From positions 41,562 to 105,561 of the IMG/VR virus record IMGVR_UViG_3300045988_157190: a stretch of DNA of 64,000 nucleotides. The stretch is one strand, 5' to 3'. The translations under genes and the position numbers were made by a program. The stretch's first letter is position 1. Each line of letters begins with the position of its first letter. This DNA is from a virus. Positions 2,095 to 42,019 of this stretch are shown here, piece by piece. Below the pieces are notes generated by a model, which searched no databases, was not told the DNA's origin, and saw only the letters and a list, made by a program, of their open reading frames with translations.

Positions 2095-2228
2095 GAAATA
2101 TATACCTGTATAATTGTTTATAGTTAATCGAGTTGCAAACCCATTAAAAGAAAGGAGGTGAGAGCATGAAATAGCAAAAATCTATTCTAAATTCCTCTAT
2201 GAACAAATCTAAGTTTTAATAAAGGAGG

Positions 2229-2516
2229 ATGCCGAAAATCCTTAACAGAGTAGGTACATTAACAATCTCGTTGTTAGTAAATTACGTTAATCAAGAAAGG
2301 GCTTTGAACACAATCTGTAAAAATCGGTTCTTAGCCCTTTCGTCTTTAAAAACTAATAGTATGCCTTACGAAAAGAAGAATATTGAAACTCCCAAAAAGA
2401 AACCTATGATCATTCCGGTAAAGAATGCTGCTCCTGCTTGGACAAAGACAAAGGTACGGAACATTATGCGTGATTCCAAATATCCCGAACTTCATGGAGA
2501 GATGTATCTGGGTTAA
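2229..2516 (+). CDS. doubtful ORF (alternative start M45 at 2361)
   Basis: 95-aa ORF with a basic, low-complexity C terminus. Converges on and overlaps the minus-strand gene 2513..3028 by 4 nt. Its N-terminal half covers a 9-bp inverted repeat (gaaagggct / agccctttc). Confidence 0.2.
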   Translation: MPKILNRVGTLTISLLVNYVNQERALNTICKNRFLALSSLKTNSMPYEKKNIETPKKKPMIIPVKNAAPAWTKTKVRNIMRDSKYPELHGEMYLG

Positions 2517-3040: not shown

Positions 3041-4180
3041 CTATTTAAGTCGTAAAGCCTTTAATCTGTCCTTTACAGAGGCTTTTCTTTCATCATCTAT
3101 ATAAGTAGCCTCCTGCACTTCATAAGGCGTCATTTCGTCTAAGAACTTCTTGTTTTGCTTTTCCAGTTCTTCCCAATTGGCTGCACGGATCAGATCGCCC
3201 GGAAGCATAATCTTTTCCCTACCCAGAATAGTTTTATTGAAACCATTGAAGTCCTTGTAGTAGCTTGTTGCAAGCTGATGTACCAATACAGTAGGGTCAA
3301 GACCTGATTTTGCGGCGACAAGGCCTATTATGATAGAATTGATAGGAAGTGTTCGAAATACACGAGAAACGTTTTCTTGTCCATGCAAGGTAGCGACAAT
3401 ATCTATTTTCCCGTCTACGGTCAACTTTAGTTCATTGCCTTTTACTTCTTTCCGGGCTTGCTCCAGCATGTTTCTTATTTCCCGCTCGAATATCAATGCC
3501 TTTTCTTCCTTTTCTCCTGCAAGGTATTTTTGATACCGGTGCTGTAGGTCTATTATGATAGTGTTTATGATCTGTAGCCGTCCGGCTTCCGTTGCTACCT
3601 TATATTGATTGGATGAAGCAAGAAATACGGCACGTTTGCTTTCGATTTCCGCTTTCTTTTTGGCGAAGATGGCTTGCAGTTCCTTTTGGGTAAGTTTTAT
3701 CTTCTTTTCTTCCTTTAGGATTTTCTGGACATCATCAACGCCGTTCATCTCCCCAAACAGTTTCACGATATAGGACATGATCTCCGGCGTGACGGAAGAA
3801 AGCATTTCTTTTCGATAAATGTCGTTGAATACCTCTTTGCACCTCTTTATTTCTTCTATGAGAGGCATAACATACATTTCTTTGTGCCGTTGTGCTTTCT
3901 TTACGTCCGATTCCTTTCCACCGTGACGAAGGATAAAACCCTTTGCAGAATAGCTTTTTAAGTCGGCCGTGATCTCCTCCCCGTCCTTACCTTCAAAGAC
4001 AAAGAAACGGTAAGACGATTCAGATAGTGCCCTTTCTGCCGTTTCCAAAGCGACAAAAGCGTTTTTTAGCTCACTGGAAGCGGTCTGGATCACTTCTGGA
4101 GCTTGTTCTATTATTTCCACAAAGTCCTTTTGGGAAATAGCCGGTAAATCTTTATTAGTAAGTTGTTTCCCCTTCTGCAT
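3041..4180 (-). CDS. hypothetical protein, helical/coiled-coil rich
   Basis: 379-aa ORF with ATG start, tightly packed with its neighbours. No catalytic motif recognised. Confidence 0.65.
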   Translation of the reverse strand: MQKGKQLTNKDLPAISQKDFVEIIEQAPEVIQTASSELKNAFVALETAERALSESSYRFFVFEGKDGEEITADLKSYSAKGFILRHGGKESDVKKAQRHKEMYVMPLIEEIKRCKEVFNDIYRKEMLSSVTPEIMSYIVKLFGEMNGVDDVQKILKEEKKIKLTQKELQAIFAKKKAEIESKRAVFLASSNQYKVATEAGRLQIINTIIIDLQHRYQKYLAGEKEEKALIFEREIRNMLEQARKEVKGNELKLTVDGKIDIVATLHGQENVSRVFRTLPINSIIIGLVAAKSGLDPTVLVHQLATSYYKDFNGFNKTILGREKIMLPGDLIRAANWEELEKQNKKFLDEMTPYEVQEATYIDDERKASVKDRLKALRLK

Positions 4181-4325
4181 TGTTCAATTCTTCGATTTGA
4201 GATTTGGAAAGCTGTGCACTATTATATTCAAAACATTCTGATTTGTCCACATAAGGACATTCGATTTTGTATCTACAGTTATCGCAAACTATAGAAGGTT
4301 TGTCTACAGACTTTTGTAACTTCAT
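4155..4325 (-). CDS. small Cys-rich protein (56 aa), not in the supplied ORF track
   Basis: Hand translation gives MKLQKSVDKPSIVCDNCRYKIECPYVDKSECFEYNSAQLSKSQIEELNNAEGETTY. It has a CxxC...C...C pattern and overlaps the start of 3041..4180 by 26 nt. Confidence 0.4.
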   Translation of the reverse strand: MKLQKSVDKPSIVCDNCRYKIECPYVDKSECFEYNSAQLSKSQIEELNNAEGETTY

Positions 4326-4384
4326 TTTGACAAAAATTTAATGGTTGTTTTTATTATGTGACAAAACTACACTAAAGAAAGGAC

Positions 4385-4427
4385 AAAAACAAAAGTCCTT
4401 ACCTATACATCGCGTACCGGTAAGGAC
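4385..4427 (-). terminator. intrinsic terminator candidate downstream of 4549..4935
   Basis: Perfect 9-bp stem gtccttacc (4395-4403) / ggtaaggac (4419-4427). On the minus strand it is followed by TTTTGTTTTT (plus-strand 4385-4394). Confidence 0.5.
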
Positions 4428-4548
4428 AAAATAATAACATAAACTAATTAAACTACTAAATACCAATTGAATAACTAAACTAATAATATAACAAACATAA
4501 AATTTTCTACACATAGCAAAGATATACAAATCTTTTTCTTTGGAAAGG

Positions 4549-4935
4549 CTAAACACTTTCAAAATATGCAACCTCTTTAAGCTGATACATTTTCAGTCTT
4601 TCTCCGTTTTCTATTTTGTAGCCGACATATACCAATTTATAAAGGAACTGATAAAAGTTGCCCGGCAAAAATTTCTTTTTGTTTTTCTTTAGGATATTCT
4701 TTACAAAATATCCTTTACAGAAAAAACCTTGTAACTTTTTTGAATCATTCAATAGAAGTACATTCACAATATCTACAGATTTGTTCAAATAGAAGCACGG
4801 CACGCCGGCATTGTATTTCCATGTTACAAACTTAACATTGTCTTTTGTGTAATACTTCATTCTATTCTTTCCTTTTCCTTTCCTTATCTGCCTTTTAGAG
4901 ACAAACAAGGAAAGGAATTTGTTTAACCGGATCAT
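4549..4935 (-). CDS. hypothetical basic protein
   Basis: 128-aa ORF. ATG lies 4 nt after the stop of the upstream gene 4940..6706. Confidence 0.5.
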   Translation of the reverse strand: MIRLNKFLSLFVSKRQIRKGKGKNRMKYYTKDNVKFVTWKYNAGVPCFYLNKSVDIVNVLLLNDSKKLQGFFCKGYFVKNILKKNKKKFLPGNFYQFLYKLVYVGYKIENGERLKMYQLKEVAYFESV

Positions 4936-4939
4936 AGCG

Positions 4940-6706
4940 TTACATGCTTTCGTTTATCTTTTGTAATACACTTTGCAACACACTGTCGCCGTTGAAAGTT
5001 GTTTCTATTATAGTATTTGTATTTCCATCACCATAAGTAAACACTATTTTCCCGGTTTTATCATATAGCTTTATATCCTGTATAACTTTTAACTCTTTTG
5101 GGCTATCCTGTTTTACTTTAGATATGATACTTTCCAGGTTAAGTCCGGTTACCTCTAACATATCGTCCGTATAGTCCGAGACATTAAAATCAAAATAGCT
5201 TTCATTCTCTTTATTCTGGACAAAGTTATACGCTTCAAACTCGTTTTTAAATACTTTTTCTTTTCCGTTCTTGAATAGGTGGAATGTTTGCGCGTTCGGT
5301 TGCTCCCAATGATAACCGTCTTTCTCCATAAAGAAAAATACTTTGTTTGTAGCACTTTCTTTGCTCTCCTGTAGGTTTGTATCATTTTTATTTTCCGACG
5401 TTCCTACAGGCTTAATATCTGTGTCCGGTTCTTTTGTTTCTTTTCCACAATAAACAGACGTTAACTTATCCGGGAAATAATCGTTCTTATCTCTAATTGA
5501 ATTAAAATAATTAATTTTGTTATCAATCATAAAACAGTTGTCACAGTTGTCAGAGACAAAAGAAAGTTTACAATAACTATATTCTTTTGTAAAATATATT
5601 TCGCCGTTCCAACCGTCCAGACAAGAAAGTACTTTACTTAATCTATTATCTGATCTATAACTAAAATTAGACGGTTCAGACAATTGTACAAACAATTCTC
5701 CGTATTTATTCTCTGTATCACTTATTCCTAATTCTGTAATATAATTTACTCTTAATCGGTCTGATCCTTTTTCTATCTCAAAAGAAACAAATTCGGAGAC
5801 TTTAGATATAGTTTTTAAATCCTTTGTAAACTGTTTATCGTCCTTAACCGTTAATTTTAATTCTTTATATAAAATAGGATAAACAGATTCTATATTTACG
5901 TTTTTATCAGAATCATAGTAGCTACATTCAAACATTTCACCTTTATCTGTTACGATCGTTACGACTGTTTGCTCTTCTTTATCGTCGCTATTGACAATAA
6001 TATGGCATTCTTTCCCTACCAACTTTTTAAAGGTGTCAAAAGATATACATATATGCTTATCCCAATCGCCAAAAAGATTAGATATTTTCACGTTTCTACT
6101 TTTACAAATAAACGCATTAGTAGCATATATTTTGCTTAAATTTATATCTATCAAAATATTGTTATCAATATATCGACTTGAATTTTTGGTTTTTACAGTT
6201 AGAAACGTTTTGTCTTTCTTATTAAATATAATATCAAAAGAACAAATACAATTATCCTCGCTTTCTTGTACCTGATTTCCTTCTTTGACAAATTCTAATT
6301 TTTCTTTGGCGCCGGACAACTGTTTGAACCTTTCCAAATATTCAAACACTTTGACTATATCAAAACTGCATTTAAAATTGTCTTTTTCAATAGAGACAAT
6401 ATTATTAGACACCTTACATACATAAGACACGCTATTTATAAAAAAAGAATCAATATTTGAATAATAAGGACTTTTGTGTAGTATTTTTGTCACTTGTTCT
6501 TTTTCTTTCTCTGTTAGTCTTTCTGCTTTCCCTTGCTTTGTTTCAAGGCTTTCGCAGTTTGCGATATAGGCGTAAACGTCTTTCAATGTATATACGCCCG
6601 GTTTTTCGTTTTTAAAAAGTTCTTGGAAGTATGCTCTTGCGATTTCCAACAATTCAACAAAAATTTCCATGAATAAAGTATTTGTACTGTTATTAGTTGC
6701 TTTCAT
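4940..6706 (-). CDS. hypothetical large protein
   Basis: 588-aa uninterrupted ORF. No motif I can name with confidence. Confidence 0.7.
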   Translation of the reverse strand: MKATNNSTNTLFMEIFVELLEIARAYFQELFKNEKPGVYTLKDVYAYIANCESLETKQGKAERLTEKEKEQVTKILHKSPYYSNIDSFFINSVSYVCKVSNNIVSIEKDNFKCSFDIVKVFEYLERFKQLSGAKEKLEFVKEGNQVQESEDNCICSFDIIFNKKDKTFLTVKTKNSSRYIDNNILIDINLSKIYATNAFICKSRNVKISNLFGDWDKHICISFDTFKKLVGKECHIIVNSDDKEEQTVVTIVTDKGEMFECSYYDSDKNVNIESVYPILYKELKLTVKDDKQFTKDLKTISKVSEFVSFEIEKGSDRLRVNYITELGISDTENKYGELFVQLSEPSNFSYRSDNRLSKVLSCLDGWNGEIYFTKEYSYCKLSFVSDNCDNCFMIDNKINYFNSIRDKNDYFPDKLTSVYCGKETKEPDTDIKPVGTSENKNDTNLQESKESATNKVFFFMEKDGYHWEQPNAQTFHLFKNGKEKVFKNEFEAYNFVQNKENESYFDFNVSDYTDDMLEVTGLNLESIISKVKQDSPKELKVIQDIKLYDKTGKIVFTYGDGNTNTIIETTFNGDSVLQSVLQKINESM

Positions 6707-27690: not shown

Positions 27691-28194
27691 ATGGAAAGAA
27701 AACAGAGAGTACATTATTTAAAGGCTTATTTGGGTAGCTTCGGTTATCCATTGCTTGTCGCTATTCCTCTTTCTCCTATTGTGGATTTAATAGAAAAATA
27801 CATATTCAAAGATTGGGAGTTCTTAAAATTCCTTGTAGTTTTAATTGTAATAGATACACTTGTTAGTTGGGTGTTCCATTTACGACAGAAAGATTTTTCT
27901 TCTAAAGGTATTGGAATGATCTTTACTAAACTTTTTGTATATGCTTGCTTGTTGGTTGTAGCGCATGTATTGGGAGGTTATACGATTAACGGAGAATCTA
28001 CAGAAACATTTACTTGGTTCCGGTCTTTGATATGCACGGCTCTTATCGTCAGGGAATCTGTTTCCATTGTTGAGAATGCAGGAAAGATCAGTCCTAACCT
28101 TGTCCCTTCATGGATCAGGAAATATTTAAGGGACTTTGACGAAAATGGATTTTTAAAAATGAAGGACAAGAGCGACAACCGTCCTTCTATTTAG
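27691..28194 (+). CDS. holin (phage_holin_4-like)
   Basis: Several TM segments, plus IDTLVSWVFHLRQKDFSSKG and RESVSIVENAGKISPNLVP, which match the D.iTG ... E.lSilEN ... P signature I recall for this holin family. Confidence 0.7.
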   Translation: MERKQRVHYLKAYLGSFGYPLLVAIPLSPIVDLIEKYIFKDWEFLKFLVVLIVIDTLVSWVFHLRQKDFSSKGIGMIFTKLFVYACLLVVAHVLGGYTINGESTETFTWFRSLICTALIVRESVSIVENAGKISPNLVPSWIRKYLRDFDENGFLKMKDKSDNRPSI

Positions 28195-28809: not shown

Positions 28810-30012
28810 ATGCTTAGGCTTTTATTTACAACAAAAGATTTAAGCAAGCAAATGACTGTCATAACAGATGGTGTAGACAGTCAGATGAATGTTTTTGTAA
28901 CTGAAAATACGGTAGGTGATGTAGACTATTACAAATCTTTAGGGATTGTAATAAAAGCTGGTATTACCTATAATATCGGTAAGTTTATAGAATGGTGTCT
29001 TGCTAATGAATTGGGTCTTATCGGCTATCCCGAAGGACTGGAAGAAGAAAAGATCAATTATGTAAACGTTCTTGATAGAACGGAATATACGTTTACATTG
29101 CAGACAAAATCTCTTTCTTTCGTTAATACGGGTGAAAGCAAGAATTTTGTTGTTACTTCCAGCAAGCAGGAATATCGGGACGGTGCGCCTTACGGGGAAC
29201 CCATAGCCGTTGCTATTCAGATTAAAATTTCCGGTACAGGTTTTTCGGGTAATGCGGGAATAAGTCAAATTTCTGCTACAGAGAATCCTACTGACAAGCA
29301 AAGAACTGGTACAGCTACAATCATTCAGAATGAGAGTGGAAAAACAGCAACCATTTCTTTAAGTCAAGCTGCATCTGTTATTACTTATGAAAATACGATC
29401 ACAGCCAATAAGACAACTCTTACTTTTGCTGCAACGGCAGGTGATCAAGTGGTCACAATCACTTCTACCAGACAAAAGAAGCTGAACGGTAAGAACAGTG
29501 GTTCTCCAACTACCGTAAATACTACAGGAAAAGTAACCGGTACGGGTTTTTCTTTGAAAACTCAATCGGGAGCAAACTATACCGTTTCTGTTACTGAAAA
29601 TACAAATGAGACTACCGGAAGAACAGGAACTCTTGTTGTGACACAGGAAGGGTCGGGAGCAAAATCAATTACGATTAATTTAAGCCAGCCAAAGGCAACT
29701 GTTGCTTATGTTTATAATTTGTCTTCAAACCCTTCAAGAGTGGAATTTGTTGCTACGGGTGAAACAAAAACTCTTTCTATTTCTTCTACAAAACAAAAGA
29801 CGGTAAATGGAAAGAATAGTGGTAGTCCTGTGGCTGTGAATTATACTACGACAGTTTCCGGTACAGGTTTTTCGAAAGGAACAACCGAATATTCCGTTGT
29901 AGCAGCGGTCAATACTGGTACAGCAAGAGAAGGGTCAGCAGTTGTAAAACAATCGGAAGGAACAAAGCAAATAACAATTACGCTATCACAGGCAGCAGGC
30001 ACTTCCGCTTAA
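28810..30012 (+). CDS. protein with three tandem BACON/Ig-like beta-sandwich repeats (putative virion surface or adhesion protein)
   Basis: Three repeats of about 90 aa, each ending in TI(S/N/T)LSQ: ...TGTATIIQNESGKTATISLSQ, ...TGTLVVTQEGSGAKSITINLSQ and ...REGSAVVKQSEGTKQITITLSQ. Confidence 0.6.
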   Translation: MLRLLFTTKDLSKQMTVITDGVDSQMNVFVTENTVGDVDYYKSLGIVIKAGITYNIGKFIEWCLANELGLIGYPEGLEEEKINYVNVLDRTEYTFTLQTKSLSFVNTGESKNFVVTSSKQEYRDGAPYGEPIAVAIQIKISGTGFSGNAGISQISATENPTDKQRTGTATIIQNESGKTATISLSQAASVITYENTITANKTTLTFAATAGDQVVTITSTRQKKLNGKNSGSPTTVNTTGKVTGTGFSLKTQSGANYTVSVTENTNETTGRTGTLVVTQEGSGAKSITINLSQPKATVAYVYNLSSNPSRVEFVATGETKTLSISSTKQKTVNGKNSGSPVAVNYTTTVSGTGFSKGTTEYSVVAAVNTGTAREGSAVVKQSEGTKQITITLSQAAGTSA

Positions 30013-30024
30013 TTTTTTATTGAC

Positions 30025-31728
30025 GTGAGTAGGAAAAGAGACAAAAATAAAAATCAAGGAAAGTCAGACCTGTTAAAGGGTCTGACCAGCCTTTCTTTGG
30101 AAGATATTGTAGGATTGCAGAAAACTCTTCCTACTTTGCTTCAATCCAAATTACAACAGATGTCCCGGTCTGACAACTTGGGGGATTTGGTGAAAGCTAA
30201 TCTTTACATGGGGAACATCAACCAAAGACAGGACGATGTAAAGGCTGTGTTCTTCAACCCGGACGAAGCAAGCGATACGGGAAGGGGTTACAAAGATCCT
30301 AACTTTTACGGTTCTATGCCGTTCGAAGTGCTTCGGAGAATGGGGGACATCTTTGTTGTTCGGGCTGTTGTCAATACCCGTGTCGAACAGGTTCAGAACT
30401 TTCTCCATTTCAGTACGGATGAACAGAAAGAAGGATACACTATTAGAAGGAAAAGGAATCCTTTTGAGAAGGTAAGTGCAGAACGCTCAAGAGAAGATCA
30501 GATTAAAATTAGCTATATCAGAAAGTTTTTGGAAGAAGGCGGTTTTCACGACAAATGGGAATCATTTGATACATTCCAAGACTTTGGGAGAAAAGTTGTG
30601 TTTGATAGCCTTACTCTTGATCAGCTTGCATTTGAAATAGTAAGGGATAGATCGTGGAATCTGGCACGTTATCGTGCTGTAGACGCTTCTTTGATACGTT
30701 TTCTTGATAGTATCGATCCGAAGTTCCGGGAAGAATTTGAGCAGTATCGGTTCAAAGGCTATTTACCAAAATATTGTATGTGCTGGCAAGGTCAGATCAT
30801 GCAGCATCCTGTTACGCATGAAAGTGTTATCTTTTACCCTTGGGAGCTGGGTATTGGTATCCGTAACAAATCCACCAACATATATAAAAACGGGTACGGA
30901 ACATCTGAACTGGAAACACTGTCAAGCGTTATGACATGGATTTTGTGGGGGTTTGAATACAACGGCCTGTATTTTTCTAAAGGGTCTAATCCTAAAGGAA
31001 TTATTAATGTTAAGAATCCGAACATATCGCAGGCTTCTTTAAGTGAGTTCAGACAGGCATGGCAGCAGACGATGGTGGGGGTTCAAAATTCTCATAGAAC
31101 GCCTATTATCAATGGGTTAGACCTTCAATGGGTTGATTTATCCAAAAACACTAACCGTGATATGGAGTTTAGTGAGTGGGTAAAATTCCTACTTGTTATG
31201 ACTTGTGCTGTTTATCGTATTGATCCGTCAGAGCTTGGATTCCAATTCAAAGATCAGACAAATATCTTTGGACAAGCTGGACAAAAGGAACGTTTACAAC
31301 ATTCAAAAGACAAAGGACTAAAACCTATTCTTGTGTTCTTACAAGAGGTGATCAATTATTATCTTGTATCAGAACTGGATGAAGATTTTGAGTTTGTCTT
31401 TACAGGTGTAGATGCGGAAGATGAAGGAAGACAGGTTGAGATTGATGCTAAGAAAATTCAAAACGGTATGGTTTGTCTGGAAGATATTTTTGAAAAATAC
31501 TCTGGACGTAAATTCAACCCAGAAACTGATACCATTTTGAATCAATCCTACCAGCTTCAAAAACAATATCAGATGCAGCAAGCTATGTACGGAGGTGATG
31601 CGATGAACGAAGAAGTGGATCGACAGATCGCGTCAGAAGACAAAGAAGATACACAGAAATCGTTTGATTCCAACCCTATCATGAGTGCTGCAATGTCTTA
31701 CATTGAAAAGAATTGGGGAGAAAAGTAA
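30025..31728 (+). CDS. portal protein
   Basis: 567 aa with a GTG start, directly upstream of a Mu F/SPP1 gp7-like gene (the canonical portal-gp7 order). Size and acidic C terminus fit. Confidence 0.65.
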   Translation: MSRKRDKNKNQGKSDLLKGLTSLSLEDIVGLQKTLPTLLQSKLQQMSRSDNLGDLVKANLYMGNINQRQDDVKAVFFNPDEASDTGRGYKDPNFYGSMPFEVLRRMGDIFVVRAVVNTRVEQVQNFLHFSTDEQKEGYTIRRKRNPFEKVSAERSREDQIKISYIRKFLEEGGFHDKWESFDTFQDFGRKVVFDSLTLDQLAFEIVRDRSWNLARYRAVDASLIRFLDSIDPKFREEFEQYRFKGYLPKYCMCWQGQIMQHPVTHESVIFYPWELGIGIRNKSTNIYKNGYGTSELETLSSVMTWILWGFEYNGLYFSKGSNPKGIINVKNPNISQASLSEFRQAWQQTMVGVQNSHRTPIINGLDLQWVDLSKNTNRDMEFSEWVKFLLVMTCAVYRIDPSELGFQFKDQTNIFGQAGQKERLQHSKDKGLKPILVFLQEVINYYLVSELDEDFEFVFTGVDAEDEGRQVEIDAKKIQNGMVCLEDIFEKYSGRKFNPETDTILNQSYQLQKQYQMQQAMYGGDAMNEEVDRQIASEDKEDTQKSFDSNPIMSAAMSYIEKNWGEK

Positions 31729-31729
31729 C

Positions 31730-31927
31730 GTGAATGTAAGATATGTCAAAAATATCAAGGTCGAAAAGATGCCTTTAGTGTCAAATGTACATCATCATGT
31801 TGATCCTATGCGTTACCCAAAAGTACAGGAAGGATATGAAGGTATGGCGCAAGTTATCTTTTCGACACAGATAAATAATATGTTGATGGATTTGACGAAG
31901 AAAATAGTAGAACAAAAATCTAAGTAA
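31730..31927 (+). CDS. doubtful small ORF between the portal and MuF genes
   Basis: GTG at 31730 just after the portal stop. An alternative ATG is at 31769. Confidence 0.3.
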   Translation: MNVRYVKNIKVEKMPLVSNVHHHVDPMRYPKVQEGYEGMAQVIFSTQINNMLMDLTKKIVEQKSK

Positions 31928-31929
31928 GT

Positions 31930-32883
31930 ATGCTATTCACACCGGAAGAGATACAGCAGTTGTTTTTCATTGTCGATTATCGTATTGCTCGTGTAATTGC
32001 CGATGTGCTGGGTAAGGAATATCTTTCCCAAGAAGACATAGATATGCTGAAAAGATTTGGCTTTGATTTAAAGACAGAAGTTCTGAAAATACCACCTTAT
32101 TGGCAAGCATTCATATTTGGACGGTTAGCAGCCATACTTTCTCCTGCGCAGCTTTCTTCGCTTGATTTTAACGACTTAAAACAATATGTTGAAAAGGAAC
32201 AATACCCGGCATTGACAACAAGGGAAAAGGCAGAATACAATGCGTCGGCTATGCGTTCTTATTCCTATATAAAGGGAATGGGAAATAAAATAAAGGATTC
32301 TCTTTCTTCTACTATATCGGAAGAAGAAATGAAAATAGCTGTTGCGGAACGAGAAATGGAAGTTGAAACAGCTATTAAAGAAGAACTTTCAGAAGGGGTT
32401 ATAAAAAGGAAATCTGTTCAGTCTATAGTAAGTGCACTTGGACATAGATTGGATGAATGGAATCGTGACTGGGGACGTATAGTCGCCACCGAAATGGAGA
32501 ACATTTTTCAGATAGGTACGGCTCAAATGATAATGAAAGAACATGGCATCCATGCTAAGGTGTATAAGCAAACAATGCCACAAGCCTGCCGGTATTGCTT
32601 AAATGCCTACACTACAAATGGCTATGGCTCTAAGCCCGTTATTTTTGATTTGTCCGAATTGATTGCCAACGGTACTAACATAGGTAAAAAGTCAAAAGAC
32701 TGGAAGCCTGTTTTAACAAATATTCACCCTTTTTGCAGGTGTATGTTAAGACATGTTCCAGATGGATATGAATGGGATGACAAAACACAGTCATTTGAAC
32801 CTAAAAAAGTAGATGAAAGTAAGCGGGTTCAGAGAAAATCAAAGGTAAAAATAACTGTAGGTACAAAATATTTCGAAGTGTAA
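31930..32883 (+). CDS. head morphogenesis protein, Mu F / SPP1 gp7 family
   Basis: RDWGRIVATEMENIFQIG ... QACRYCLNAY ... IHPFCRCMLRHVP matches the Phage_Mu_F signature (RTE ... C..C ... HP.CRC). Confidence 0.8.
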   Translation: MLFTPEEIQQLFFIVDYRIARVIADVLGKEYLSQEDIDMLKRFGFDLKTEVLKIPPYWQAFIFGRLAAILSPAQLSSLDFNDLKQYVEKEQYPALTTREKAEYNASAMRSYSYIKGMGNKIKDSLSSTISEEEMKIAVAEREMEVETAIKEELSEGVIKRKSVQSIVSALGHRLDEWNRDWGRIVATEMENIFQIGTAQMIMKEHGIHAKVYKQTMPQACRYCLNAYTTNGYGSKPVIFDLSELIANGTNIGKKSKDWKPVLTNIHPFCRCMLRHVPDGYEWDDKTQSFEPKKVDESKRVQRKSKVKITVGTKYFEV

Positions 32884-33356
32884 TGAAACAAAGAACGATT
32901 TTTAATTCCGGTTTTATCAGTATTCTTACTATAGATGGTTCAAAATGGATAAAGGACATCCAAGTAGGAAATGTGATAAAAACCGTTTCCGGTTACAGAA
33001 GGGTGACAAAGGTTATCCAGTCTGAACTGTCTTCTGTTCCTCGTATTTTTGATATATGCTACGTTACGGAAGATGAAACTCTTGAAAAGGGATACCGTGA
33101 AGATGCTTTACATAGAGTGGTAGATGGCTCTTATGTTTTGTGCCATAATAAAACAAAAAGAGTAGATAAGATAAAACCGGGTGATGTTCTTATACTTAAA
33201 AATGGATGTAAAGGTAAAGTAACCAACATTATACAGATACCTATTGCAAATGTTTCGCAATATTTCTATACCTTTGAACTTGATAAACCGGACTTTTATT
33301 TTGCAGACAATGTCTGTGTGCCGGATGCGACAATTTGTAAAGACAAAACAAAATAA
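32883..33356 (+). CDS. free-standing Hint (Hedgehog/intein)-like domain protein, probably degenerate
   Basis: SGFISILTIDGSKWIKDIQVGNVIKT resembles the intein N-terminal block. KPGDVLILKNGCKGKVTNI ... FYTFELDKPDFYFADNVCVPD resembles the C-terminal blocks. The canonical Cys1 and His-Asn are not conserved. Confidence 0.45.
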   Translation: MKQRTIFNSGFISILTIDGSKWIKDIQVGNVIKTVSGYRRVTKVIQSELSSVPRIFDICYVTEDETLEKGYREDALHRVVDGSYVLCHNKTKRVDKIKPGDVLILKNGCKGKVTNIIQIPIANVSQYFYTFELDKPDFYFADNVCVPDATICKDKTK

Positions 33357-33364
33357 TTTCTGAT

Positions 33365-35338
33365 ATGGGTTTAAACTTGAAAGCGTTGCTCGGATTGCAG
33401 ACGCAAAATGAAAAAATAGCTGAATATAAAAGACTTCTTAAAAAAGGAAAAGAGGTAAGCCAAGAGATAAGCTCCCTTGGTGAAATCTATTCCATTCAGA
33501 AGTCGCAGTACGATGAACTGAAAGGAAGTGAAGATGCTGATGCAGTTGCAAAGGCAGAAAGTTGTTTTAATGAGTTTTTAAAGCAACAGTCTAAGGATTT
33601 GATGGATGTGTACAAGAGAAGAAATTCTATCCATAAATCCATTGCAAAGTTGGAAAATGATGAAGAATTTGCTGAAATGGCAAAAGACATTCGTCAACTT
33701 GAAAGCTGTCGTGAGTTATGGAGACAGGGCTTGATCAAGAAATCTGTTTACTTTGATTTGTTTAAGGCGAAGCAAGGGAAAGTTCAGTTTGCGGACGTGC
33801 TTGTTTTTAGAGGAGACAAACTTCTTATTTTGAATCGTGTGGGAGAAAAGGGCGCGGTTTCAAATGATTGGTGTATTCCGGGTGGACATGTTGACCCGGG
33901 AGAAACTTTCTTGCAAGCTGCAAAAAGAGAACTGTTTGAGGAAACAGGTATTGATATGTCGGAAGAACTTTTGATGCCGGTCGGTAAATACATTCCAAAG
34001 AGAAAAGGTATTGAAATTCACTATTTCATGTGCTTTGTTGATCCTGATGCTCCTGTCAACATTCTTGTGGACGGAGAAGAAGAAACAGGTAGTGAATGGA
34101 TCAATCCTCACACTGAACTTGACCAATATAATTTTATCTTTGATATGAAAGATAATATCAAACGTATTCTTGGTATTGAGGTACAGGATGAGTTTCAGTT
34201 GGTAATGAAATCTTTCAAAGAGGGCAAAATTTCAAAGGATGTATTCACCTCCTATTGTGAAAAGAATCCTGAAAAACTTGAAAAGTCGGCAAACAAAACT
34301 TCTTTTACGCATGAAGAAAGAAAGGATTTGGCAAAGAAAGGTGAAGCAATGCCCAATGGCAAATATCCTATTCGCAATCGGCAGGATTTGAAAGATGCTA
34401 TTCGTTTGTCCGGTAGTTCTTCTATGTCGAAAGAAGAAGTAAAGAAATGGATCAAGAAACGGGCAAAGGAGCTTAATCTGGAAGACGAATTGCCGGAAGA
34501 CTGGAAAGTAGAAAAAACTATGGATACAGCAGACGTACATGTATTGCAGCGTGAATCTTTGGATGGTGAAACCAAAAATATTGTTCGTACAGAGGATGGT
34601 GTAGGCGAAGGTATTGAAAAGGCTATTACTTTCAAGAGAACTATCTATGAAGAAAAAGAAGTCGAAGTGGTAGAAGAGCCGAACAAATACACTTACGGTG
34701 AGTTTCATATGAATTTCTCTGATAATGATGGTGGAAAAGGAGATAAGTTTGCTGATTTTTTAGGCATACTTCAAAAGGTAACTTGTCTTGGTAAACCTTT
34801 TTCTATTGTTATTAAGACAGAAGAAAATGGGGAACAAGAATGGAAATGGAATGGTAAGTTTCGCATTGAAGGCACTACCAAAACAGAAAACATCCGAAAA
34901 TCGACAGAAGATGAATTGTCTGTTGAAAATGGAAATACCGAAGAAATCGAAAAGTCCAAAAAGACCGATAAGAGTATTTTCAACACTTATCTCAATTTTC
35001 TGGAAGGAACTAAAACACGTCTTAAAAATATTCATTGGGGTGAGGAAGATAATTCCAAGCATGTCTATCTCGATGAACTTTCAGAAGAAGTTTCAGAATT
35101 TGAGGATAAGATTGCGGAAGCCGGGCAATCGGGATTCGGACGATTCAAAGACGGGGAAATCCAAGGGGATGAAGTGAAAGAGGATGATCCGGTTGCTATT
35201 TGCCAAATGATATTCGACAAAACGATTGAGTTCAGAAAAGAACTTGCTGAAAAGGATGAATACATTGGCGAGGTAAGCTGGATTGATGATTTTCTTGCAA
35301 CACTCAAACAGTCTAAATATAGATTGCAATTGCATTAA
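33365..35338 (+). CDS. multidomain protein containing a Nudix hydrolase domain
   Basis: Perfect Nudix box GGHVDPGETFLQAAKRELFEETGI at nt 33881-33952 (GX5EX7REUXEEXGU). A coiled-coil N terminus, the motif KGEAMPNGKYPIRNRQDLKDAIRL and a helical C-terminal domain are also present. Confidence 0.8.
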   Translation: MGLNLKALLGLQTQNEKIAEYKRLLKKGKEVSQEISSLGEIYSIQKSQYDELKGSEDADAVAKAESCFNEFLKQQSKDLMDVYKRRNSIHKSIAKLENDEEFAEMAKDIRQLESCRELWRQGLIKKSVYFDLFKAKQGKVQFADVLVFRGDKLLILNRVGEKGAVSNDWCIPGGHVDPGETFLQAAKRELFEETGIDMSEELLMPVGKYIPKRKGIEIHYFMCFVDPDAPVNILVDGEEETGSEWINPHTELDQYNFIFDMKDNIKRILGIEVQDEFQLVMKSFKEGKISKDVFTSYCEKNPEKLEKSANKTSFTHEERKDLAKKGEAMPNGKYPIRNRQDLKDAIRLSGSSSMSKEEVKKWIKKRAKELNLEDELPEDWKVEKTMDTADVHVLQRESLDGETKNIVRTEDGVGEGIEKAITFKRTIYEEKEVEVVEEPNKYTYGEFHMNFSDNDGGKGDKFADFLGILQKVTCLGKPFSIVIKTEENGEQEWKWNGKFRIEGTTKTENIRKSTEDELSVENGNTEEIEKSKKTDKSIFNTYLNFLEGTKTRLKNIHWGEEDNSKHVYLDELSEEVSEFEDKIAEAGQSGFGRFKDGEIQGDEVKEDDPVAICQMIFDKTIEFRKELAEKDEYIGEVSWIDDFLATLKQSKYRLQLH

Positions 35339-35465: not shown

Positions 35466-36206
35466 ATGTTTGATAGTTTTAAATTATATGTAGATTTGGA
35501 TTTGGAGAAAGCCAAAAGCGCGGTATCAGAGCAACAATCTCCATACGCAAACATGGTATTTTCCGGTGTCGCTTCCGATTCTTCAAAAGATGATGAAGAA
35601 GAAGTCTTAGAGCCGTCCGGGTTTATATATGATAGATTTTTGAAATCCGGTTTGTTTAACCTCGATCATTTGCCCACACGTTCACCTATTAACAAAAGTC
35701 GTTTTTGGATTGGTGAACCTATTGAAGCCTATGTGAAAGACAATAAGTTTTTTGTAAAAGGTAAATTGTGGGAAAAGTCGCCGGAAGCCCGTGCTTTTTG
35801 GGATAAGGCAATTGAAATGCAAGAATCGGGTTCGACAAGAAAACCGGGTATGAGCGTAGAAGGTAAGGCGTTGGAACGGGATAAGAAAAACCCTAAAAGA
35901 GTGACAAAAGCTCTTATTACAAACATTGCTCTTACAATGACACCGGTCAACACTAAGACCTATTTGGATATCGAAAAAAGTAAGGGTGGTAATGTGAATG
36001 ATTTGTTGGAAATACAAAAATCAACTATTCTTTTTGAATATTGTACAGAGAATGGACTTGTCCAGATTGACAATAATTTCAAGGTGAATTTTCAAAAATC
36101 ACATTCTTTTGATGTTGATGCTTTTTGGGAAATTTATCGTGCAGTTCAAGAAGGTAGGGTTGAAAAAAGTGTTTTAGATACATTCGTAGAAAAAGTTCGA
36201 CAATAA
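35466..36206 (+). CDS. prohead (capsid maturation) protease, HK97/S78-like
   Basis: VFSGVASDSSKDDEEEV ... FNLDHL ... KPGMSVEGKAL fits the His/Ser arrangement of prohead proteases. It sits just before the scaffold and capsid genes. Confidence 0.6.
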   Translation: MFDSFKLYVDLDLEKAKSAVSEQQSPYANMVFSGVASDSSKDDEEEVLEPSGFIYDRFLKSGLFNLDHLPTRSPINKSRFWIGEPIEAYVKDNKFFVKGKLWEKSPEARAFWDKAIEMQESGSTRKPGMSVEGKALERDKKNPKRVTKALITNIALTMTPVNTKTYLDIEKSKGGNVNDLLEIQKSTILFEYCTENGLVQIDNNFKVNFQKSHSFDVDAFWEIYRAVQEGRVEKSVLDTFVEKVRQ

Positions 36207-36949: not shown

Positions 36950-38458
36950 ATGGACTTGTATAACTATAATGATTTAGCTGCTTTTGGCGGTGCTGGTAAT
37001 GTTGCCGATGTGTTGAAAGCAATGGAAGCCGGTTTACAAACCGGTATGCAGTACGACAATCAGATCAACAATGGTGGTGGTCTGAAAGTTGAATCTTTGG
37101 ATGCTTACATCAAGGTTTTGGCTAACCGCTTGAACCAGTTGGTTGTTTACAACGAAATGCCGAAACAGAGAATTGAGAATACGGTTCACCAGTACAACCA
37201 GTTGTACAAATATGGTGAAGAAATTGGTATTTTCAATCTTGAAGGTGAAACACCGGAAGAAACAGATACTCAATACATCCGTAAGTCAATCATCTCTAAG
37301 TTTATGGGCGTTACAGGACAGGTAACTGATCCGGCTATGCTTGCTAAACTTGCCGGTGGTATGAACATGTACACTCGTGAGGTACAGAATAAGACCACTT
37401 TGCTTTTGACTTTGATTGACACTCGTTTGACGGATGCTGATTCTACTTGTATCGCAGAACAGTTTGATGGCATCTTCCGTCAGCACATGATGGGTGTAGC
37501 TGCTACTGACCGTGGTTCTACGGAAGGTATGAGCACAGAACAGATTTTGGATGCTTACTATGGCTCACAGGCTGTGATTGATGCACAGAATGGTATCTTG
37601 ACTGATGCTTTGGTTGAAGATGCTGCTGATCGCGTTGTAAACGTTTACAACGGTTATATCGACCGTATCGTTTCTGCACCGGTTGTGTTCAACAACTATG
37701 TGAAGAAATTCCATGAATCAAAACGCGTTGTTGTTGGCATGTCTAACAGCGTTGTAGGCGCAACAATGGGACAGTCTGTAAACGACATCATGACGCAGTT
37801 CGGTAAGGTTGCTGTTAAAACAGACAAGTTCTTTGACGTTCGCCGTCCGATCAAGGCTTCTGCTACAGCTTCTTCTCCGAAGGCTCCGGGTATTCCTGTT
37901 GCTGGTGGAACTAAGTCTGTTGTTGTTGCCGATACAAAAACCAACTTCGTATTACATGCCGGCTCTTATGGCTACTTGGTAACAGCTAAGAACCGTTATG
38001 GTGAATCTGCTCCTTTGAAATTGACGGATACTGCTCTGGCAGTTGCAGCTAATCAGTCTGTAGATTTGCAGTGGACAGCTCCAGTTGGAGGTGCTTATGC
38101 TCCTACTTGCTACGTTGTTTATCGTACTAAGAAAGTAACTGCTTTGACAGATACGACAGAATACTATCCTATCTTCACTATTCCGGCTTCTATGCTGGCT
38201 GCTGGATATGATGGTGCTGCTGCAACAAAAGTACGTGACCGTAACCGTATCATTGCAGGTACGAAGTCTGCTCTGATTTACTATAACGACAGCCAGATCA
38301 ACGAATACTTGCAGTTTGGTGACACTCGCAAACTTGACTTTGCAATCACCGCTCCGTCTCGCAGATTCGCTATCTTGAACTACGGTACTCCAGTTCTGTA
38401 TCAGTCGGCTAAGATTTGCCGTATTATCAATATCGGTGATGAAGGTTTGGGTGCATAA
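36950..38458 (+). CDS. major capsid protein
   Basis: 502 aa after protease and scaffold, followed by a strong hairpin terminator. Gly/Ala/Thr-rich composition and biased codon usage suggest high expression. Confidence 0.65.
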   Translation: MDLYNYNDLAAFGGAGNVADVLKAMEAGLQTGMQYDNQINNGGGLKVESLDAYIKVLANRLNQLVVYNEMPKQRIENTVHQYNQLYKYGEEIGIFNLEGETPEETDTQYIRKSIISKFMGVTGQVTDPAMLAKLAGGMNMYTREVQNKTTLLLTLIDTRLTDADSTCIAEQFDGIFRQHMMGVAATDRGSTEGMSTEQILDAYYGSQAVIDAQNGILTDALVEDAADRVVNVYNGYIDRIVSAPVVFNNYVKKFHESKRVVVGMSNSVVGATMGQSVNDIMTQFGKVAVKTDKFFDVRRPIKASATASSPKAPGIPVAGGTKSVVVADTKTNFVLHAGSYGYLVTAKNRYGESAPLKLTDTALAVAANQSVDLQWTAPVGGAYAPTCYVVYRTKKVTALTDTTEYYPIFTIPASMLAAGYDGAAATKVRDRNRIIAGTKSALIYYNDSQINEYLQFGDTRKLDFAITAPSRRFAILNYGTPVLYQSAKICRIINIGDEGLGA

Positions 38459-39137: not shown

Positions 39138-39944
39138 ATGCCGGGACAACTGATTTTTACAGTAAAGTACAAGAAAAATACGGGTTCTGTCATTTCCGTT
39201 GCGGAGATGTGGAACAATTACCTGTACGGTATCGCTATACAAGCCGGTACGGGGACTTCTTTTTCTGATGAATCACTTAGAACTTATTTGAGTGCTGCAC
39301 AGAGAGAGATCGAGAATTATTTTAATCTCAAATTTGTAAAGCAATTAGTTGAATCGGAAACACATTCTTATTACAGAACAGATTATTTCCAACAATTTCC
39401 TATCATTCAAACTAACTGCCCGGTAAGAGTTCCACTTGCACTTACAGGTATGCTTAATAAGATGGAGCAGATTATTTACCCGCAAGGTTGGCTTAGTTGT
39501 GAGAAAGATATGGACGGGATAGGAAAACGAAGAATGAGTGTTGTTCCTACCGGTGCAAATTCGGTCAATGCGAACGCAGATGTTATCCTTACCGGAATGA
39601 CAACTCAGATAGGCTTCCAGCGGTTTACAAACATACCAGATTATTGGGATATTCAATATATAACCGGTTTTGATTTGGATAAAATGCCTGCCGATTTGAT
39701 TAATCTTGTTGGTAAACTTGCTTCGTTCGGCCCGCTTAATATTGCCGGAGATATGATATTCAGTTTACCCGGTATAGCTTCTATGCACTTGGAAATAGAT
39801 GGATTAAGACAATCTATCAACTCTACCGCTTCTGCTGAAAATGCAGGTTACGGGGCACGCTTGAAACAGTATCAAAAAGAAATAGAGGAAACTGTAGGGC
39901 GGATAAAACTCGTGTACGATGAATTTAGGTTTTTAGTATTATAA
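39138..39944 (+). CDS. hypothetical virion (head-completion/neck region) protein
   Basis: 268-aa ORF in the structural operon. Confidence 0.6.
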   Translation: MPGQLIFTVKYKKNTGSVISVAEMWNNYLYGIAIQAGTGTSFSDESLRTYLSAAQREIENYFNLKFVKQLVESETHSYYRTDYFQQFPIIQTNCPVRVPLALTGMLNKMEQIIYPQGWLSCEKDMDGIGKRRMSVVPTGANSVNANADVILTGMTTQIGFQRFTNIPDYWDIQYITGFDLDKMPADLINLVGKLASFGPLNIAGDMIFSLPGIASMHLEIDGLRQSINSTASAENAGYGARLKQYQKEIEETVGRIKLVYDEFRFLVL

Positions 39945-41227
39945 GGAGGGTAATTTGTTTATTTTGTTTTTATTGAAATTTCAAATAGTAAAATTGATTG
40001 ATGAGATTGGTTGAAAAACATATTGTTAAAGATAACCGATTTGAAGATATTTGCCTCAAATCAGGATTGCTATATAATTATGTCCTGTATAATGTGCGTC
40101 AAGGTATCTTCAATAAAGAATATCTGAAAGAATATGATCTTTCTACTAAACTTTGCAAAGAAAATCAATTTGATTTTAGAAATTTGCCATCATCTATTTC
40201 TCAGCAAGTAGTTGGACAAGTATTCAAGTCTATCAATTCTTGGATAAAGTTGAAAAAGGATTTTGGAAAGAATCCAGCTAAACACAACAATCGTAAGCCT
40301 CACCTTCCTTCTTACAAGAAAGGAAAGAAACAGAATATGGTAGTCTTTACAACTTCTGCTTGTAGAATCAAAGATGGATATATTTACTTCGTTAAAAATA
40401 TCATTCAACCAATTAAAACTAAAATAGGAAACAATAAACTATGTCAAGTTAGAATTATACCACAAGCTACTTGTTATGTAGTTGAAGTGATTTACGAAAA
40501 GAAAGAACAGGATTTGAATTTAAACAAAGATAATGTTCTTTCGATTGATTTGGGATTGAATAATTTATGTTCATGTATTAACAATGCAGGAAAACAACCT
40601 TTCATTGTAAACGGACATATTATCAAATCTTTTAATCAGTGGTACAATAAGAGAAAAGCTAAATTAATGTCTTTTGCAGGAGACAAAGGGACTTCAAAAA
40701 GACTTAGACAACTTAACAATTATAGGAATTTTTGGATAGAAGATCATATCCATAAGGTTAGTAGATTTATTATAAACTATTGTATTGACAATAATATCGG
40801 TAGTCTTGTAGTAGGACTGAATAAAGGATGGAAACAGAAAATTAATCTTGGAAAGAAAACAAACCAGAAATTTGTTGAGATTCCTTTTTCAAGGCTTATA
40901 GATAAAATTTCCTATAAATGCAAATTAGTTGGAATTAGTTTTTATCTTAGTGAAGAATCATACACATCAAAGGTTGATCATTTAGCTTTTGAAGAATTAG
41001 GAAAACATGACGCTTACTTAGGCAAAAGAAAGAAACGTGGGTTGTTCCAAAGTTCTGTAAATAAATTGATTAACGCAGATATCAATGGAGCTATTGGAAT
41101 AGGTAGAAAAGTATTCAGTGATTCTTATGTAAGTAGGATAATTGATAGTGGGTTAGCGTTTACCCCGGTCAAAGTAAACATTGCATAGTGTGGAAATTTG
41201 ATAAATGAAATTTAAAATTTTAGTAAC
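39945..41227 (+). mobile_element. minimal tnpB-only insertion between two structural genes
   Basis: tnpB copy 3 fills the whole gap between the stop at 39944 and the GTG at 41228. Only 56 nt of 5' flank and 39 nt of 3' flank remain. The 5' flank shares TTTTGTTTTTA ... GAAATTTCAAATA with copy 2. Confidence 0.45.
40001..41188 (+). CDS. tnpB: TnpB-like RuvC nuclease, copy 3 (intact)
   Basis: MRLVEKHIV ..., LSIDLGLNNL, SEESYTSK and INADINGAIGIGRKV. It is closest to copy 1 (KRGLFQSSV.KLINAD). There are no Cys residues between RuvC-II and RuvC-III. Confidence 0.85.
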   Translation: MRLVEKHIVKDNRFEDICLKSGLLYNYVLYNVRQGIFNKEYLKEYDLSTKLCKENQFDFRNLPSSISQQVVGQVFKSINSWIKLKKDFGKNPAKHNNRKPHLPSYKKGKKQNMVVFTTSACRIKDGYIYFVKNIIQPIKTKIGNNKLCQVRIIPQATCYVVEVIYEKKEQDLNLNKDNVLSIDLGLNNLCSCINNAGKQPFIVNGHIIKSFNQWYNKRKAKLMSFAGDKGTSKRLRQLNNYRNFWIEDHIHKVSRFIINYCIDNNIGSLVVGLNKGWKQKINLGKKTNQKFVEIPFSRLIDKISYKCKLVGISFYLSEESYTSKVDHLAFEELGKHDAYLGKRKKRGLFQSSVNKLINADINGAIGIGRKVFSDSYVSRIIDSGLAFTPVKVNIA

Positions 41228-42019
41228 GTGGCAAAGAGTATTTTACAAACACCGGTTCCGCCTTTGAGTAATGCAAGTCCTGAATTTATACGTTCAGAGT
41301 TTGATTCTGCCGTTTATTTGAAAGGGTATGAGGTGATATTGGAAAAGGCGTTAAGATGTCCTTGTAATGCACCGGATGCGCCTTTAGTGGATTGCCAGAA
41401 TTGTTTTGGTACAGGTTATTTTTATATCAATCCTACAAACACTCATGCTCTTATAACCGGCATAAACGGGGATAATAGTTACAAACGTTGGTCAGAAGAA
41501 CTGATAGGAACAATTAACGTAACGGTAACAGACGTTGATAAACCCAATTTAGGATATTTTGACCGGATCACAATTTTAAAAGAGTTCTCTTACTTTAGTG
41601 AAAATTTGTCTGTAAGAACGGATGGGGAGAACTTTTTTGTGTTTACGACTTACAAACCATTGAGCATTTATAGCATACATGTGTTTGAATCGTCTACAGA
41701 GCCTTTGAGACAGCTTTCTCCGGCAGATTATAAGATAAGTGATACAAACCCTTATTGCGTAATTTTGACGGCTGATATGTCTTTAAATCCGGTTGTAAGC
41801 ATTTATTACCAGCATCAATTGGAATTTCATGTATTGGACTTTCCTCATGAAGTTCGGGCTTCTTGGAAGAAAAACAAGGAAACGGGACAGTTGGAAAGAA
41901 CAAGACTTCCTATTCAAGCAGTGGCAAGAAGGACACATTTGATTGTGTCTGAAAAACCTAATTTTGATGGATCGGGAGTTATTTTGAATGATAATATTCA
42001 AATGAAAATTAGTGAGTAA
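41228..42019 (+). CDS. hypothetical structural protein with a CPC ... CQNC cluster
   Basis: 263-aa ORF with a GTG start, in the structural operon. Confidence 0.6.
   Translation: MAKSILQTPVPPLSNASPEFIRSEFDSAVYLKGYEVILEKALRCPCNAPDAPLVDCQNCFGTGYFYINPTNTHALITGINGDNSYKRWSEELIGTINVTVTDVDKPNLGYFDRITILKEFSYFSENLSVRTDGENFFVFTTYKPLSIYSIHVFESSTEPLRQLSPADYKISDTNPYCVILTADMSLNPVVSIYYQHQLEFHVLDFPHEVRASWKKNKETGQLERTRLPIQAVARRTHLIVSEKPNFDGSGVILNDNIQMKISE

Follow-up and report, generated by a model that had tools for sequence, protein, structure and literature searches.

We examined a 64,000-nucleotide stretch of viral DNA (hereafter the window; positions 41,562 to 105,561 of IMG/VR record IMGVR_UViG_3300045988_157190) around three consecutive genes in its head module, which encode a MuF/gp7-like minor head protein, a 157-residue protein named here ORF157, and a 657-residue Nudix protein. 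The source phage is uncultured, comes from the human gut and has a genome of ~100-108 kb, with the head genes in a late block. The plus-strand gene order is portal, a small open reading frame (ORF), MuF-like, ORF157, Nudix protein, prohead protease, a 228-residue ORF and major capsid protein. The MuF-like gene (31930..32883; 317 residues) is an intein-less allele recognized by its matches in the PHROG database, a CRC motif and synteny. ORF157 (32883..33356) is a free-standing and apparently splicing-dead intein homolog of predicted Hint fold, identified with blastp, hhalign and Foldseek, and the multidomain Nudix gene (33365..35338) was assigned from Pfam and PHROG matches. The TAA stop of the MuF-like gene (32881-32883) overlaps the ATG of ORF157 (32883-32885) by one base, in the sequence TAATG, and the MuF-like frame ends in ‘...gaa gtg TAA TGA’, with a second in-frame stop directly after the first. 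The spacing from ORF157 to the Nudix ATG is 8 nt, and no terminator-like sites were found on the plus strand in the portal-to-protease interval. An earlier note on this DNA had described the three-ORF string, with its one-base overlap, between portal and protease; its coordinates proved exact against the ORF list and our reading of the sequence.

By sequence and predicted structure, ORF157 is a Hint-fold protein. Its residues 7-148 aligned by blastp with residues 2-146 of the CFNS-type mini-inteins that interrupt the MuF-like gene of sister phages, at 35-46% identity and with E values reaching 4e-44. Comparison with the MuF inteins by hhalign gave 99.8% probability and an E value of 2e-30 over 142 columns; the Pfam Vint model scored 0.003, under its cutoff. 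When an AlphaFold2 model of ORF157 (predicted local distance difference test, pLDDT, 63) was searched with Foldseek, the top 36 matches in the Protein Data Bank (PDB) were all inteins, bacterial intein-like (BIL) domains or Hedgehog Hint domains, with template modeling (TM) scores of 0.37-0.44. The earlier label ‘Hint-like’ is thus supported both by homology and by the structure prediction.

The inteins themselves were found by length among the MuF-like proteins. Most of the 139 MuF-like homologs have ~316 residues, and 17 have 450-508 residues with Hint or intein Pfam domains. In these 17 long orthologs the insertion is bounded by HP[FY]|C...N|CRC, as expected of a canonical intein at the HPxCRC motif. 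Most of the cognate CFNS-type MuF inteins are mini-inteins without an endonuclease; one 669-residue homolog carries a full-size intein with a DUF559/Vsr-like endonuclease (Pfam Intein_splicing, 3.3e-10). Some intein-bearing orthologs match Pfam PT-HINT, the matches falling on the true inteins inside MuF, and automatic BFVD/UniProt annotations call such orthologs ‘Hint domain-containing protein’ or ‘Intein splicing domain’. A different intein, of 339 residues and LAGLIDADG type, occupies the same HPF|CRC site in close relatives (loci L054-L060). The exteins beside it read LHPH|...|CRCNLR, whereas intein-less alleles read IHPF|CRCMLR; L057 retains HPF. These altered extein residues are consistent with co-conversion tracts from homing.

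A second MuF site, occupied by a LAGLIDADG-type intein, was found in L100-L104 (MuF ORF 3501-5543; FPGA[CFPIEDTEFL...IWSGN]CRHCISLY). The window gene is intein-less at both sites. Its empty HPF|CRC homing site (32725..32742, plus strand) reads ‘cac cct ttt | tgc agg tgt’, with the insertion point between nucleotides 32733 and 32734, and H266, P267, C269, R270 and C271 are invariant in MuF-like homologs. The empty second site is the conserved CxxC at C220-C223 (32587..32598, plus strand), where the L100-L104 insert precedes C220; both cysteines are invariant across 48 homologs. At each of the two sites the intein comes before a conserved Cys motif that may be a metal site. MuF-like head proteins join the list of intein hosts, with two sites in conserved Cys motifs.

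To compare catalytic residues, we aligned 18 inteins with 69 non-identical free-standing homologs. All of the inteins (18/18) possess Cys1, the block-B T..H pair, the terminal Asn and the +1 Cys. Cys1 is missing in 69/69 free-standing forms, replaced by I, G, Q, L, A, E or M, and the block-B His and terminal Asn are missing in nearly all of them; the residues of the fold core are kept. In ORF157, Ile6 aligns with intein Cys1, V80-D-G-S83 with the block-B T-G-N-H, and Pro147-Asp148|Ala149 with x-Asn|Cys. ORF157 is therefore predicted to be unable to splice or cleave, because all of the splicing residues are gone. The earlier proposal of a self-cleaving release module fails for the same reason, as none of the residues required for cleavage at either terminus is present. 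The ends of the free-standing genes lie close to the intein boundaries, starting 0-6 residues before and stopping 0-9 residues after them. ORF157 is an ORF of its own behind a complete MuF-like gene, its Hint core preceded by 5 residues and followed by 9, and no duplicated C-extein remnants were recognizable after it.

We also looked for this Hint domain in larger proteins. An exhaustive profile search with a hidden Markov model (HMM) across 1.8 billion representatives returned 23 matches, mostly free-standing proteins of 135-150 residues. Neither these matches nor ~95 classified loci contained a fused MuF-Hint-X or Hint-Nudix architecture, so that the survey of relatives proposed in the earlier note came back empty. 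A MuF-ORF157 fusion made by frameshifting or readthrough was considered and excluded by the double in-frame stop and by the lack of a canonical slippery heptamer in the last 20 MuF codons, read by eye.

The loci just mentioned come from a set of ~125 that were fetched, some being overlapping windows of the same contigs. Close relatives share the order MuF-ORF157-Nudix, with ORF157 falling into one allele group at 93-99% identity and another at 70-75%. In the 56-59% clade, the order is MuF, an ORF of 190-203 residues, a Hint gene of 141-147 residues and Nudix; in the L067 clade it is MuF, a 145-residue Hint gene and Nudix. The divergent Hint genes P0143, P0148 and P0149 lie between MuF and the next gene and overlap the MuF stop. 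Thus, across ~90 related loci, every free-standing Hint lineage is positioned 3’ of MuF and before the Nudix gene, with an overlapping stop and start. Where a CFNS-type intein resides in MuF (6 loci, 5 distinct sequences), MuF is followed directly by Nudix. The free-standing gene was present in 0/6 loci with the cognate CFNS intein, as against 83/85 without it, and it co-occurs in 10 loci with the heterologous LAGLIDADG intein at the same site. On the MuF extein tree the intein-bearing and free-standing states are interspersed, with weak deep nodes; on the Hint tree active mini-inteins nest among the free-standing forms, with weak support. A simpler rule of exactly one Hint copy per genome was entertained and discarded, being broken by L099, a locus of the P0069 clade that has none.

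Two further observations concern the same interval. The two ORF157 allele groups (L010-L061 versus the window) occur although the MuF proteins are all 89-98% identical, a sign that cassettes may have recombined within this stretch of the operon. The 190-203-residue gene between MuF and the Hint gene (H199; L004 6948-7547, L062 5948-6520, L070 5951-6559 and similar loci) has intein-like termini, MxGYKGDxxV ... YNL...IIHE. The idea that H199 might be a second dead, older ex-intein was dropped as an impression only: hhalign against inteins gave 2% probability and a PDB search gave nothing.

Selection was estimated from 47 unique genes of the ORF157 family (1031 pairs with a synonymous divergence, dS, above 0.05), with all genes compared taken from the same genomes. 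The median ratio of nonsynonymous to synonymous divergence (dN/dS) was 0.094 for the ORF157 family, at a dS of 0.90, compared with 0.063 for MuF-like, 0.064 for the Nudix protein, 0.041 for portal and 0.038 for protease. The free-standing Hint ORF is intact, at 141-160 residues, across at least 6 divergent lineages down to ~25% identity, and no disrupted copies were seen in ~85 loci. The ORF157 family is under purifying selection similar to that on portal, MuF and Nudix. A dead intein with no splicing to perform should drift, yet dN/dS is low; the ORF157 protein itself is therefore likely to be functional.

The 317-residue protein upstream of ORF157 was assigned by remote similarity. It matched phrog_115 (5.7e-6), phrog_595 (1.4e-5) and phrog_2841 (0.0096), the same three PHROGs matched by SPP1 gp7 (1.5e-66 to phrog_115), and it has the C-terminal CRC motif common to SPP1 gp7 and Mu gp30. 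An AlphaFold2 model (pLDDT 87) retrieved minor capsid, head morphogenesis and MuF-like proteins from BFVD (probability 0.97-1, E values of 1e-3 to 3e-2, TM scores of 0.26-0.42). Pfam PF04233 (Phage_Mu_F) did not match the window protein at E<=0.1, nor 13 relatives (alignment A2) and 3 cultured-phage homologs at E<=0.01; SPP1 gp7, our positive control for this model, scored 6.8e-33. An NCBIfam scan of the MuF-like proteins gave no MuF match, comparing the protein directly with SPP1 gp7 and Mu gp30, by HMM and by hhalign, yielded nothing significant apart from the CRC motif, and PDB sequence and fold searches returned nothing comparable. The protein ends ~48 residues past the CRC motif without an extra C-terminal domain, and no immunity-like gene is present next to it. 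We consider it a probable remote member of the MuF/gp7 superfamily of minor head proteins and not a Pfam-level member. The earlier assignment to the Mu F/SPP1 gp7 family accordingly stands as remote homology, on the phrog_115 match, synteny and the CRC motif, and falls at the level of the curated Phage_Mu_F model.

The 657-residue protein consists of a coiled-coil N-terminus, a Nudix domain, a 76-residue module, a variable region and a Dps-like C-terminus. The Nudix domain (residues 144-260; 33794..34144, plus strand) scored 5.8e-17 with Pfam NUDIX, or 62.4 bits against a cutoff of 21.1. Its Nudix box (residues 174-196; nt 33884-33952) follows the consensus G-x5-E-x7-REUxEExGU perfectly, as the earlier note had reported with a range one codon longer (33881-33952), and the REx2EE catalytic residues are intact in 11/11 clade representatives. 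The closest solved structure is that of T. thermophilus Ndx1, an Ap6A hydrolase (3.7e-7); NCBIfam equivalogs were all far under their cutoffs. Metagenomes yielded 1356 homologs of the protein. Residues 1-296, the coiled-coil and Nudix parts, are kept in every clade, with 35% identity to the 433-residue ortholog in L005.

The 76-residue module (residues 305-380; 34277..34504, plus strand) appears to be mobile, occurring as a separate 80-residue gene in L005 (1725-1967; 57% identity). It contains GKYPIxNxxDLxDAIRL and resembles hypothetical proteins of Gordonia and Microbacterium phages. The C-terminal ~125 residues form a putative Dps/ferritin-like domain (DUF5856-like; 34961..35332, plus strand) with weak family matches: Pfam DUF5856 at 9e-5 (23.9 bits against a cutoff of 34.6) and phrog_858 at 4.6e-5. 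By tblastn this region matched the crAss-like ‘putative DpsA protein’ at about 1e-9 to 5e-11, and precomputed Pfam annotations place PF19174 in most orthologs of the Nudix protein.

Nudix orthologs follow MuF, with or without a Hint gene, in every clade, and the slot between MuF and the prohead protease is constant for Nudix across clades. MuF directly abuts the Nudix gene, with no Hint gene, in L002, L089-L092, L005 and L099. The Nudix protein is an independent and constant member of the head-gene block, and the Hint protein is dispensable for it, because these relatives join MuF straight to Nudix. The idea in the earlier note of a Hint-based release of the Nudix protein is contradicted by the same loci.

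Relatives carry other conflict-type enzymes here, either behind the Nudix gene or adjoining the MuF-like gene. PBECR1-domain and ADP-ribosylglycohydrolase (ARH) proteins occupy the same slot (L089 7833-9389; L004 12014-12880; L090 9257-9386), and in Bacillus phage Nachito (L093 6181-8781) an 866-residue PARP-domain protein lies beside a MuF-like gene and the portal. Nudix domains are fused to portal in Burkholderia phage Bcep1 gp18 and in phrog_15528, and Nudix-MuF fusions occur elsewhere (PMC9503650). Head-module Nudix proteins have been predicted, from comparative genomics, to be packaged (Iyer et al. 2022, PMC9503650); our literature search for Nudix in virion proteomes found no experimental virion evidence, and we found no capsid-targeting module shared by the Nudix protein and the large neighboring proteins of relatives. 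A packaged and ejected head enzyme acting on nucleoside-diphosphate-linked (NDP-X) compounds is a plausible, putative role. The MuF-Nudix adjacency, together with the PBECR1, ARH and PARP proteins found there in relatives, makes this locus a candidate for testing the predicted packaging of NAD/ADP-ribose enzymes.

We favor, at a probability of roughly 0.7, a joint reading in which ORF157 descends from the intein that interrupts the MuF-like gene of sister phages and has been exapted as a non-catalytic protein, beside a separately conserved head-module Nudix/Dps-like enzyme. A CFNS-type mini-intein would have come to stand alone just 3’ of the MuF stop, at a distance of ~147 nt from the homing site; this copy would have been cut back to the ends of the intein and have lost its splicing residues, with nothing to release. 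ORF157 would be made in step with MuF by translational coupling through the stop/start overlap and kept by selection as a Hint-fold protein without catalysis, most likely as a binding or assembly partner in head morphogenesis. In intein-bearing relatives the same job may already fall to the excised intein. The Nudix gene product would act as an independent coiled-coil/Nudix/Dps-like enzyme, its packaging and substrates being those predicted above. We raise more tentatively, as a possibility that we would not bet on, that a Hint polypeptide has a job of its own and is supplied either by splicing from MuF or by the coupled gene, the two states being interchangeable alleles; this would explain both the exclusion between cognate intein and free gene and the purifying selection on a dead copy.

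Several observations weigh against the exaptation of an intein at this locus. The ORF157 model reached a pLDDT of only 63, and no universal new motif separates the free-standing forms from inteins. Both the intein and the free-standing Hint gene are missing from L005 and L099, so that the protein is not a general requirement. The Fisher test of exclusion (p ~4e-8, on counts of 82/84 that predate the correction of one misclassified locus) ignores shared ancestry, and the neighbor-joining trees, weak at depth, do not establish the number or direction of transitions between the intein and free-standing states. The host protein, finally, falls outside the Phage_Mu_F model.

Other explanations were weighed against the same evidence. 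The earlier note had read the locus as a split MuF-Hint-effector cargo system, whose Hint domain cleaves itself and so frees the Nudix effector, either inside the capsid or in the host. The MuF-Hint-Nudix order with its stop/start overlap is real, some intein-bearing MuF orthologs do score with PT-HINT, and MuF-effector fusions are well known (PMC5576092, PMC5512222). This model is nonetheless very improbable: the parts are separate ORFs in all ~90 loci examined, with no fusion in the profile search and a double stop without a slippery heptamer between MuF and ORF157; the Cys1 of cleavage is absent from every free-standing form and the His and Asn from nearly all; Nudix follows MuF directly where the Hint gene is missing; and the PT-HINT matches are true inteins within MuF, not domains upstream of cargo. 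The closest relatives of ORF157 are likewise true inteins in MuF orthologs and not pretoxin Hint domains. We also think it unlikely that ORF157 is a functionless relic, displaced by illegitimate recombination and hitch-hiking in a packed operon. Its splicing residues are gone, no new conserved motif has appeared, the gene is missing from some clades, and the literature contains one intein pseudogene that has decayed and has no exteins (Tori & Perler 2011, PMC3196547). A relic is hard to reconcile with a dN/dS of 0.09 at a dS of ~0.9, comparable to essential head genes, with intact ORFs in ~85 loci of at least six lineages, or with conserved fold-core residues; phages tend to shed DNA by deletion, but every in-group genome lacking the cognate intein still has the ORF157 gene. 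Only marginally less doubtful is a role in intein conflict, in which ORF157 shields an intein-less MuF from re-invasion or disrupts the splicing of competitors in trans. Strict mutual exclusion holds for the cognate CFNS-type intein and not for the heterologous LAGLIDADG intein that uses this site; the phage group is rich in inteins (two MuF sites, portal) and TnpB elements, and intein-bearing and free-standing branches are mixed on the MuF tree. Common descent, or redundancy of one Hint copy, explains the exclusion equally well, however; most cognate inteins lack an endonuclease and leave little homing to resist; and there is no known mechanism by which a dead Hint domain would block homing or splicing.

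The Nudix/Dps-like protein leaves more room for disagreement. The chance that it is not cargo is considerable, if short of even; it would then be a late intracellular enzyme, combining for example MutT-like sanitation of the nucleotide pool with Dps-like protection of DNA or against oxidation, or have a role in assembly. Its best matches are generic (MutT, RppH, the Ap6A hydrolase Ndx1) and far under curated cutoffs, source annotations call it an 8-oxo-dGTP diphosphatase, and the Dps-like C-terminus suggests DNA or iron chemistry over the degradation of signals; nor was a capsid-targeting or other module found that it shares with neighboring putative cargo. Set against these points are its fixed position from MuF to protease in all clades, the fusions of Nudix to portal and to MuF elsewhere, and the predicted head-cargo enzymes (PBECR1, ARH, PARP) in the same slot of relatives.

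ORF157 resembles mini-inteins (gp41-1, DnaB and the CFNS-type in MuF) in fold, in sequence (up to 46% identity) and in size (~146 residues), and it shares the neighborhood of the CFNS-type MuF mini-inteins, the MuF-like gene. It differs from them in having no exteins and its own start and stop, in lacking Cys1, the block-B Thr/His, the terminal Asn and the +1 Cys, and in being under purifying selection without splicing to perform. The nearest published case, and the sole dead intein without exteins in the literature searched, is Arth_1007 (Arsp-FB24), a single decayed intein pseudogene reported as the first of its kind (Tori & Perler 2011, PMC3196547). Arth_1007 shares with ORF157 the lack of essential catalytic residues and of a functional host protein; it is, however, a single locus of a prophage remnant, shown by experiment to be dead and read as decaying, whereas the ORF157 family forms ~15 clusters at 50% identity over ~85 loci, with fixed position, intact ORFs and a dN/dS of 0.09. 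PT-HINT and BIL domains of polymorphic toxins belong to the same Hint superfamily, but they sit within a polypeptide directly upstream of the toxin and keep their cleavage residues, unlike the free-standing, dead and probably true-intein-derived ORF157.

The window MuF-like gene agrees with MuF/SPP1 gp7 and with MuF-effector fusions (Jamet 2017; Iyer 2017) in its place after the portal, its size, its CRC motif, its PHROGs and a neighborhood rich in putative cargo enzymes; it differs in having no Phage_Mu_F match, no C-terminal effector and no immunity gene. The window Nudix protein, like the Nudix proteins predicted to be packaged (PMC9503650) and Bcep1 gp18, has a domain that looks active and is encoded in the midst of the portal, MuF and protease genes. 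It differs in being a separate 657-residue protein with a coiled-coil, a mobile 76-residue module and a Dps-like end, and it does not demonstrably belong to the T4 NudE or NadM clades.

Inteins are usually seen as selfish inserts whose fates are persistence, precise loss or decay. Surveys of phage inteins in the literature list terminase, portal and other hosts, MuF not among them, and a review of mobile-element exaptation treats inteins only as conditional splicing switches. A survey of MuF-toxin fusions makes no mention of Hint, intein or Nudix (PMC5576092). Our search for MuF inteins and for free-standing or domesticated inteins, which did not cover all journals, found no direct precedent, and we found no earlier description of what appear to be free-standing, selected intein descendants in the literature searched. 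If the more tentative reading is right and the Hint polypeptide has a job of its own in either state, no exaptation of an intein Hint domain into a stand-alone viral protein would have been documented before this one, and a function for a mini-intein after splicing would be implied. A free-standing, dead but selected intein family in several lineages, beside the host gene of the live intein, would offer a snapshot of Hint exaptation, a step comparable to the one presumed behind Hedgehog, BIL and pretoxin Hint domains. For annotation, a Hint gene next to MuF should not be called a toxin-processing module. The system is tractable, being small, abundant in human gut viromes and available as paired intein-bearing and free-standing genomes.

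The remaining genes of the block were assigned as follows, all on the plus strand. The portal protein (30025..31728) matched Pfam Phage_portal (5.9e-19) and phrog_12 (6.9e-38) and is an intein-less allele. Many relatives have one or two LAGLIDADG inteins in portal genes of 999-1444 residues, where the match breaks at about residue 320-356 (L021, L023, L031, L044, L049, L052, L054, L055, L058, L061, L073, L075, L078, L079, L081 and L084). The small conserved ORF in the interval between portal and MuF-like (31685..31927) was taken from the ORF list and has 51-80 residues in relatives; a PHROG scan of it gave no match, and equivalents of 51-67 residues were called in L002, L004, L005 and L089-L092. 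Downstream of the Nudix gene lie the prohead maturation protease (35466..36206; phrog_1028, 5.2e-35), the 228-residue ORF, which is rich in lysine and glutamate, and a major capsid protein distantly like that of SPO1 (36950..38458; phrog_752, 4.3e-46).

The closest record is an unannotated contig from human feces (‘Bacteriophage sp.’, MT835500), ~93% identical across the region, and homologs occur on hundreds of metagenomic and IMG/VR contigs of ~95-110 kb each. Distant relatives of the major capsid protein were found by tblastn in Bacteroides phage DAC16-23, Chryseobacterium phage MA9V-3 and SPO1-like Bacillus phages; distant relatives of the 317-residue MuF-like protein occur in the same phages. 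The lineage is an abundant one in the gut, and its host is probably in Bacteroidota. A 400-residue protein with repeated BACON-like segments is encoded just 5’ of the portal (28810-30012, plus strand), after a holin-like gene (27691-28194), and a Bacteroidota host fits because of this BACON-like protein upstream of the portal.

A TnpB element (OrfB_IS605 plus Cas12f1-like TNB) occupies 39953-41229 of the window (ORF 39998-41188, plus strand), after a 268-residue gene (39138-39944), and is missing from the closest relative, MT835500. In relatives, copies of TnpB lie at the junctions of portal and MuF (L001, L037), of MuF and Hint (L026, L028, L031, L034), and of Hint and Nudix (L013, L014, L020, L030, L042, L050, L058, L059, L077). 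No tRNA genes were found in the window, and its sole Rfam match was a DUF805b RNA motif at 2222-2256 (plus strand; 52 bits, E 6e-12).

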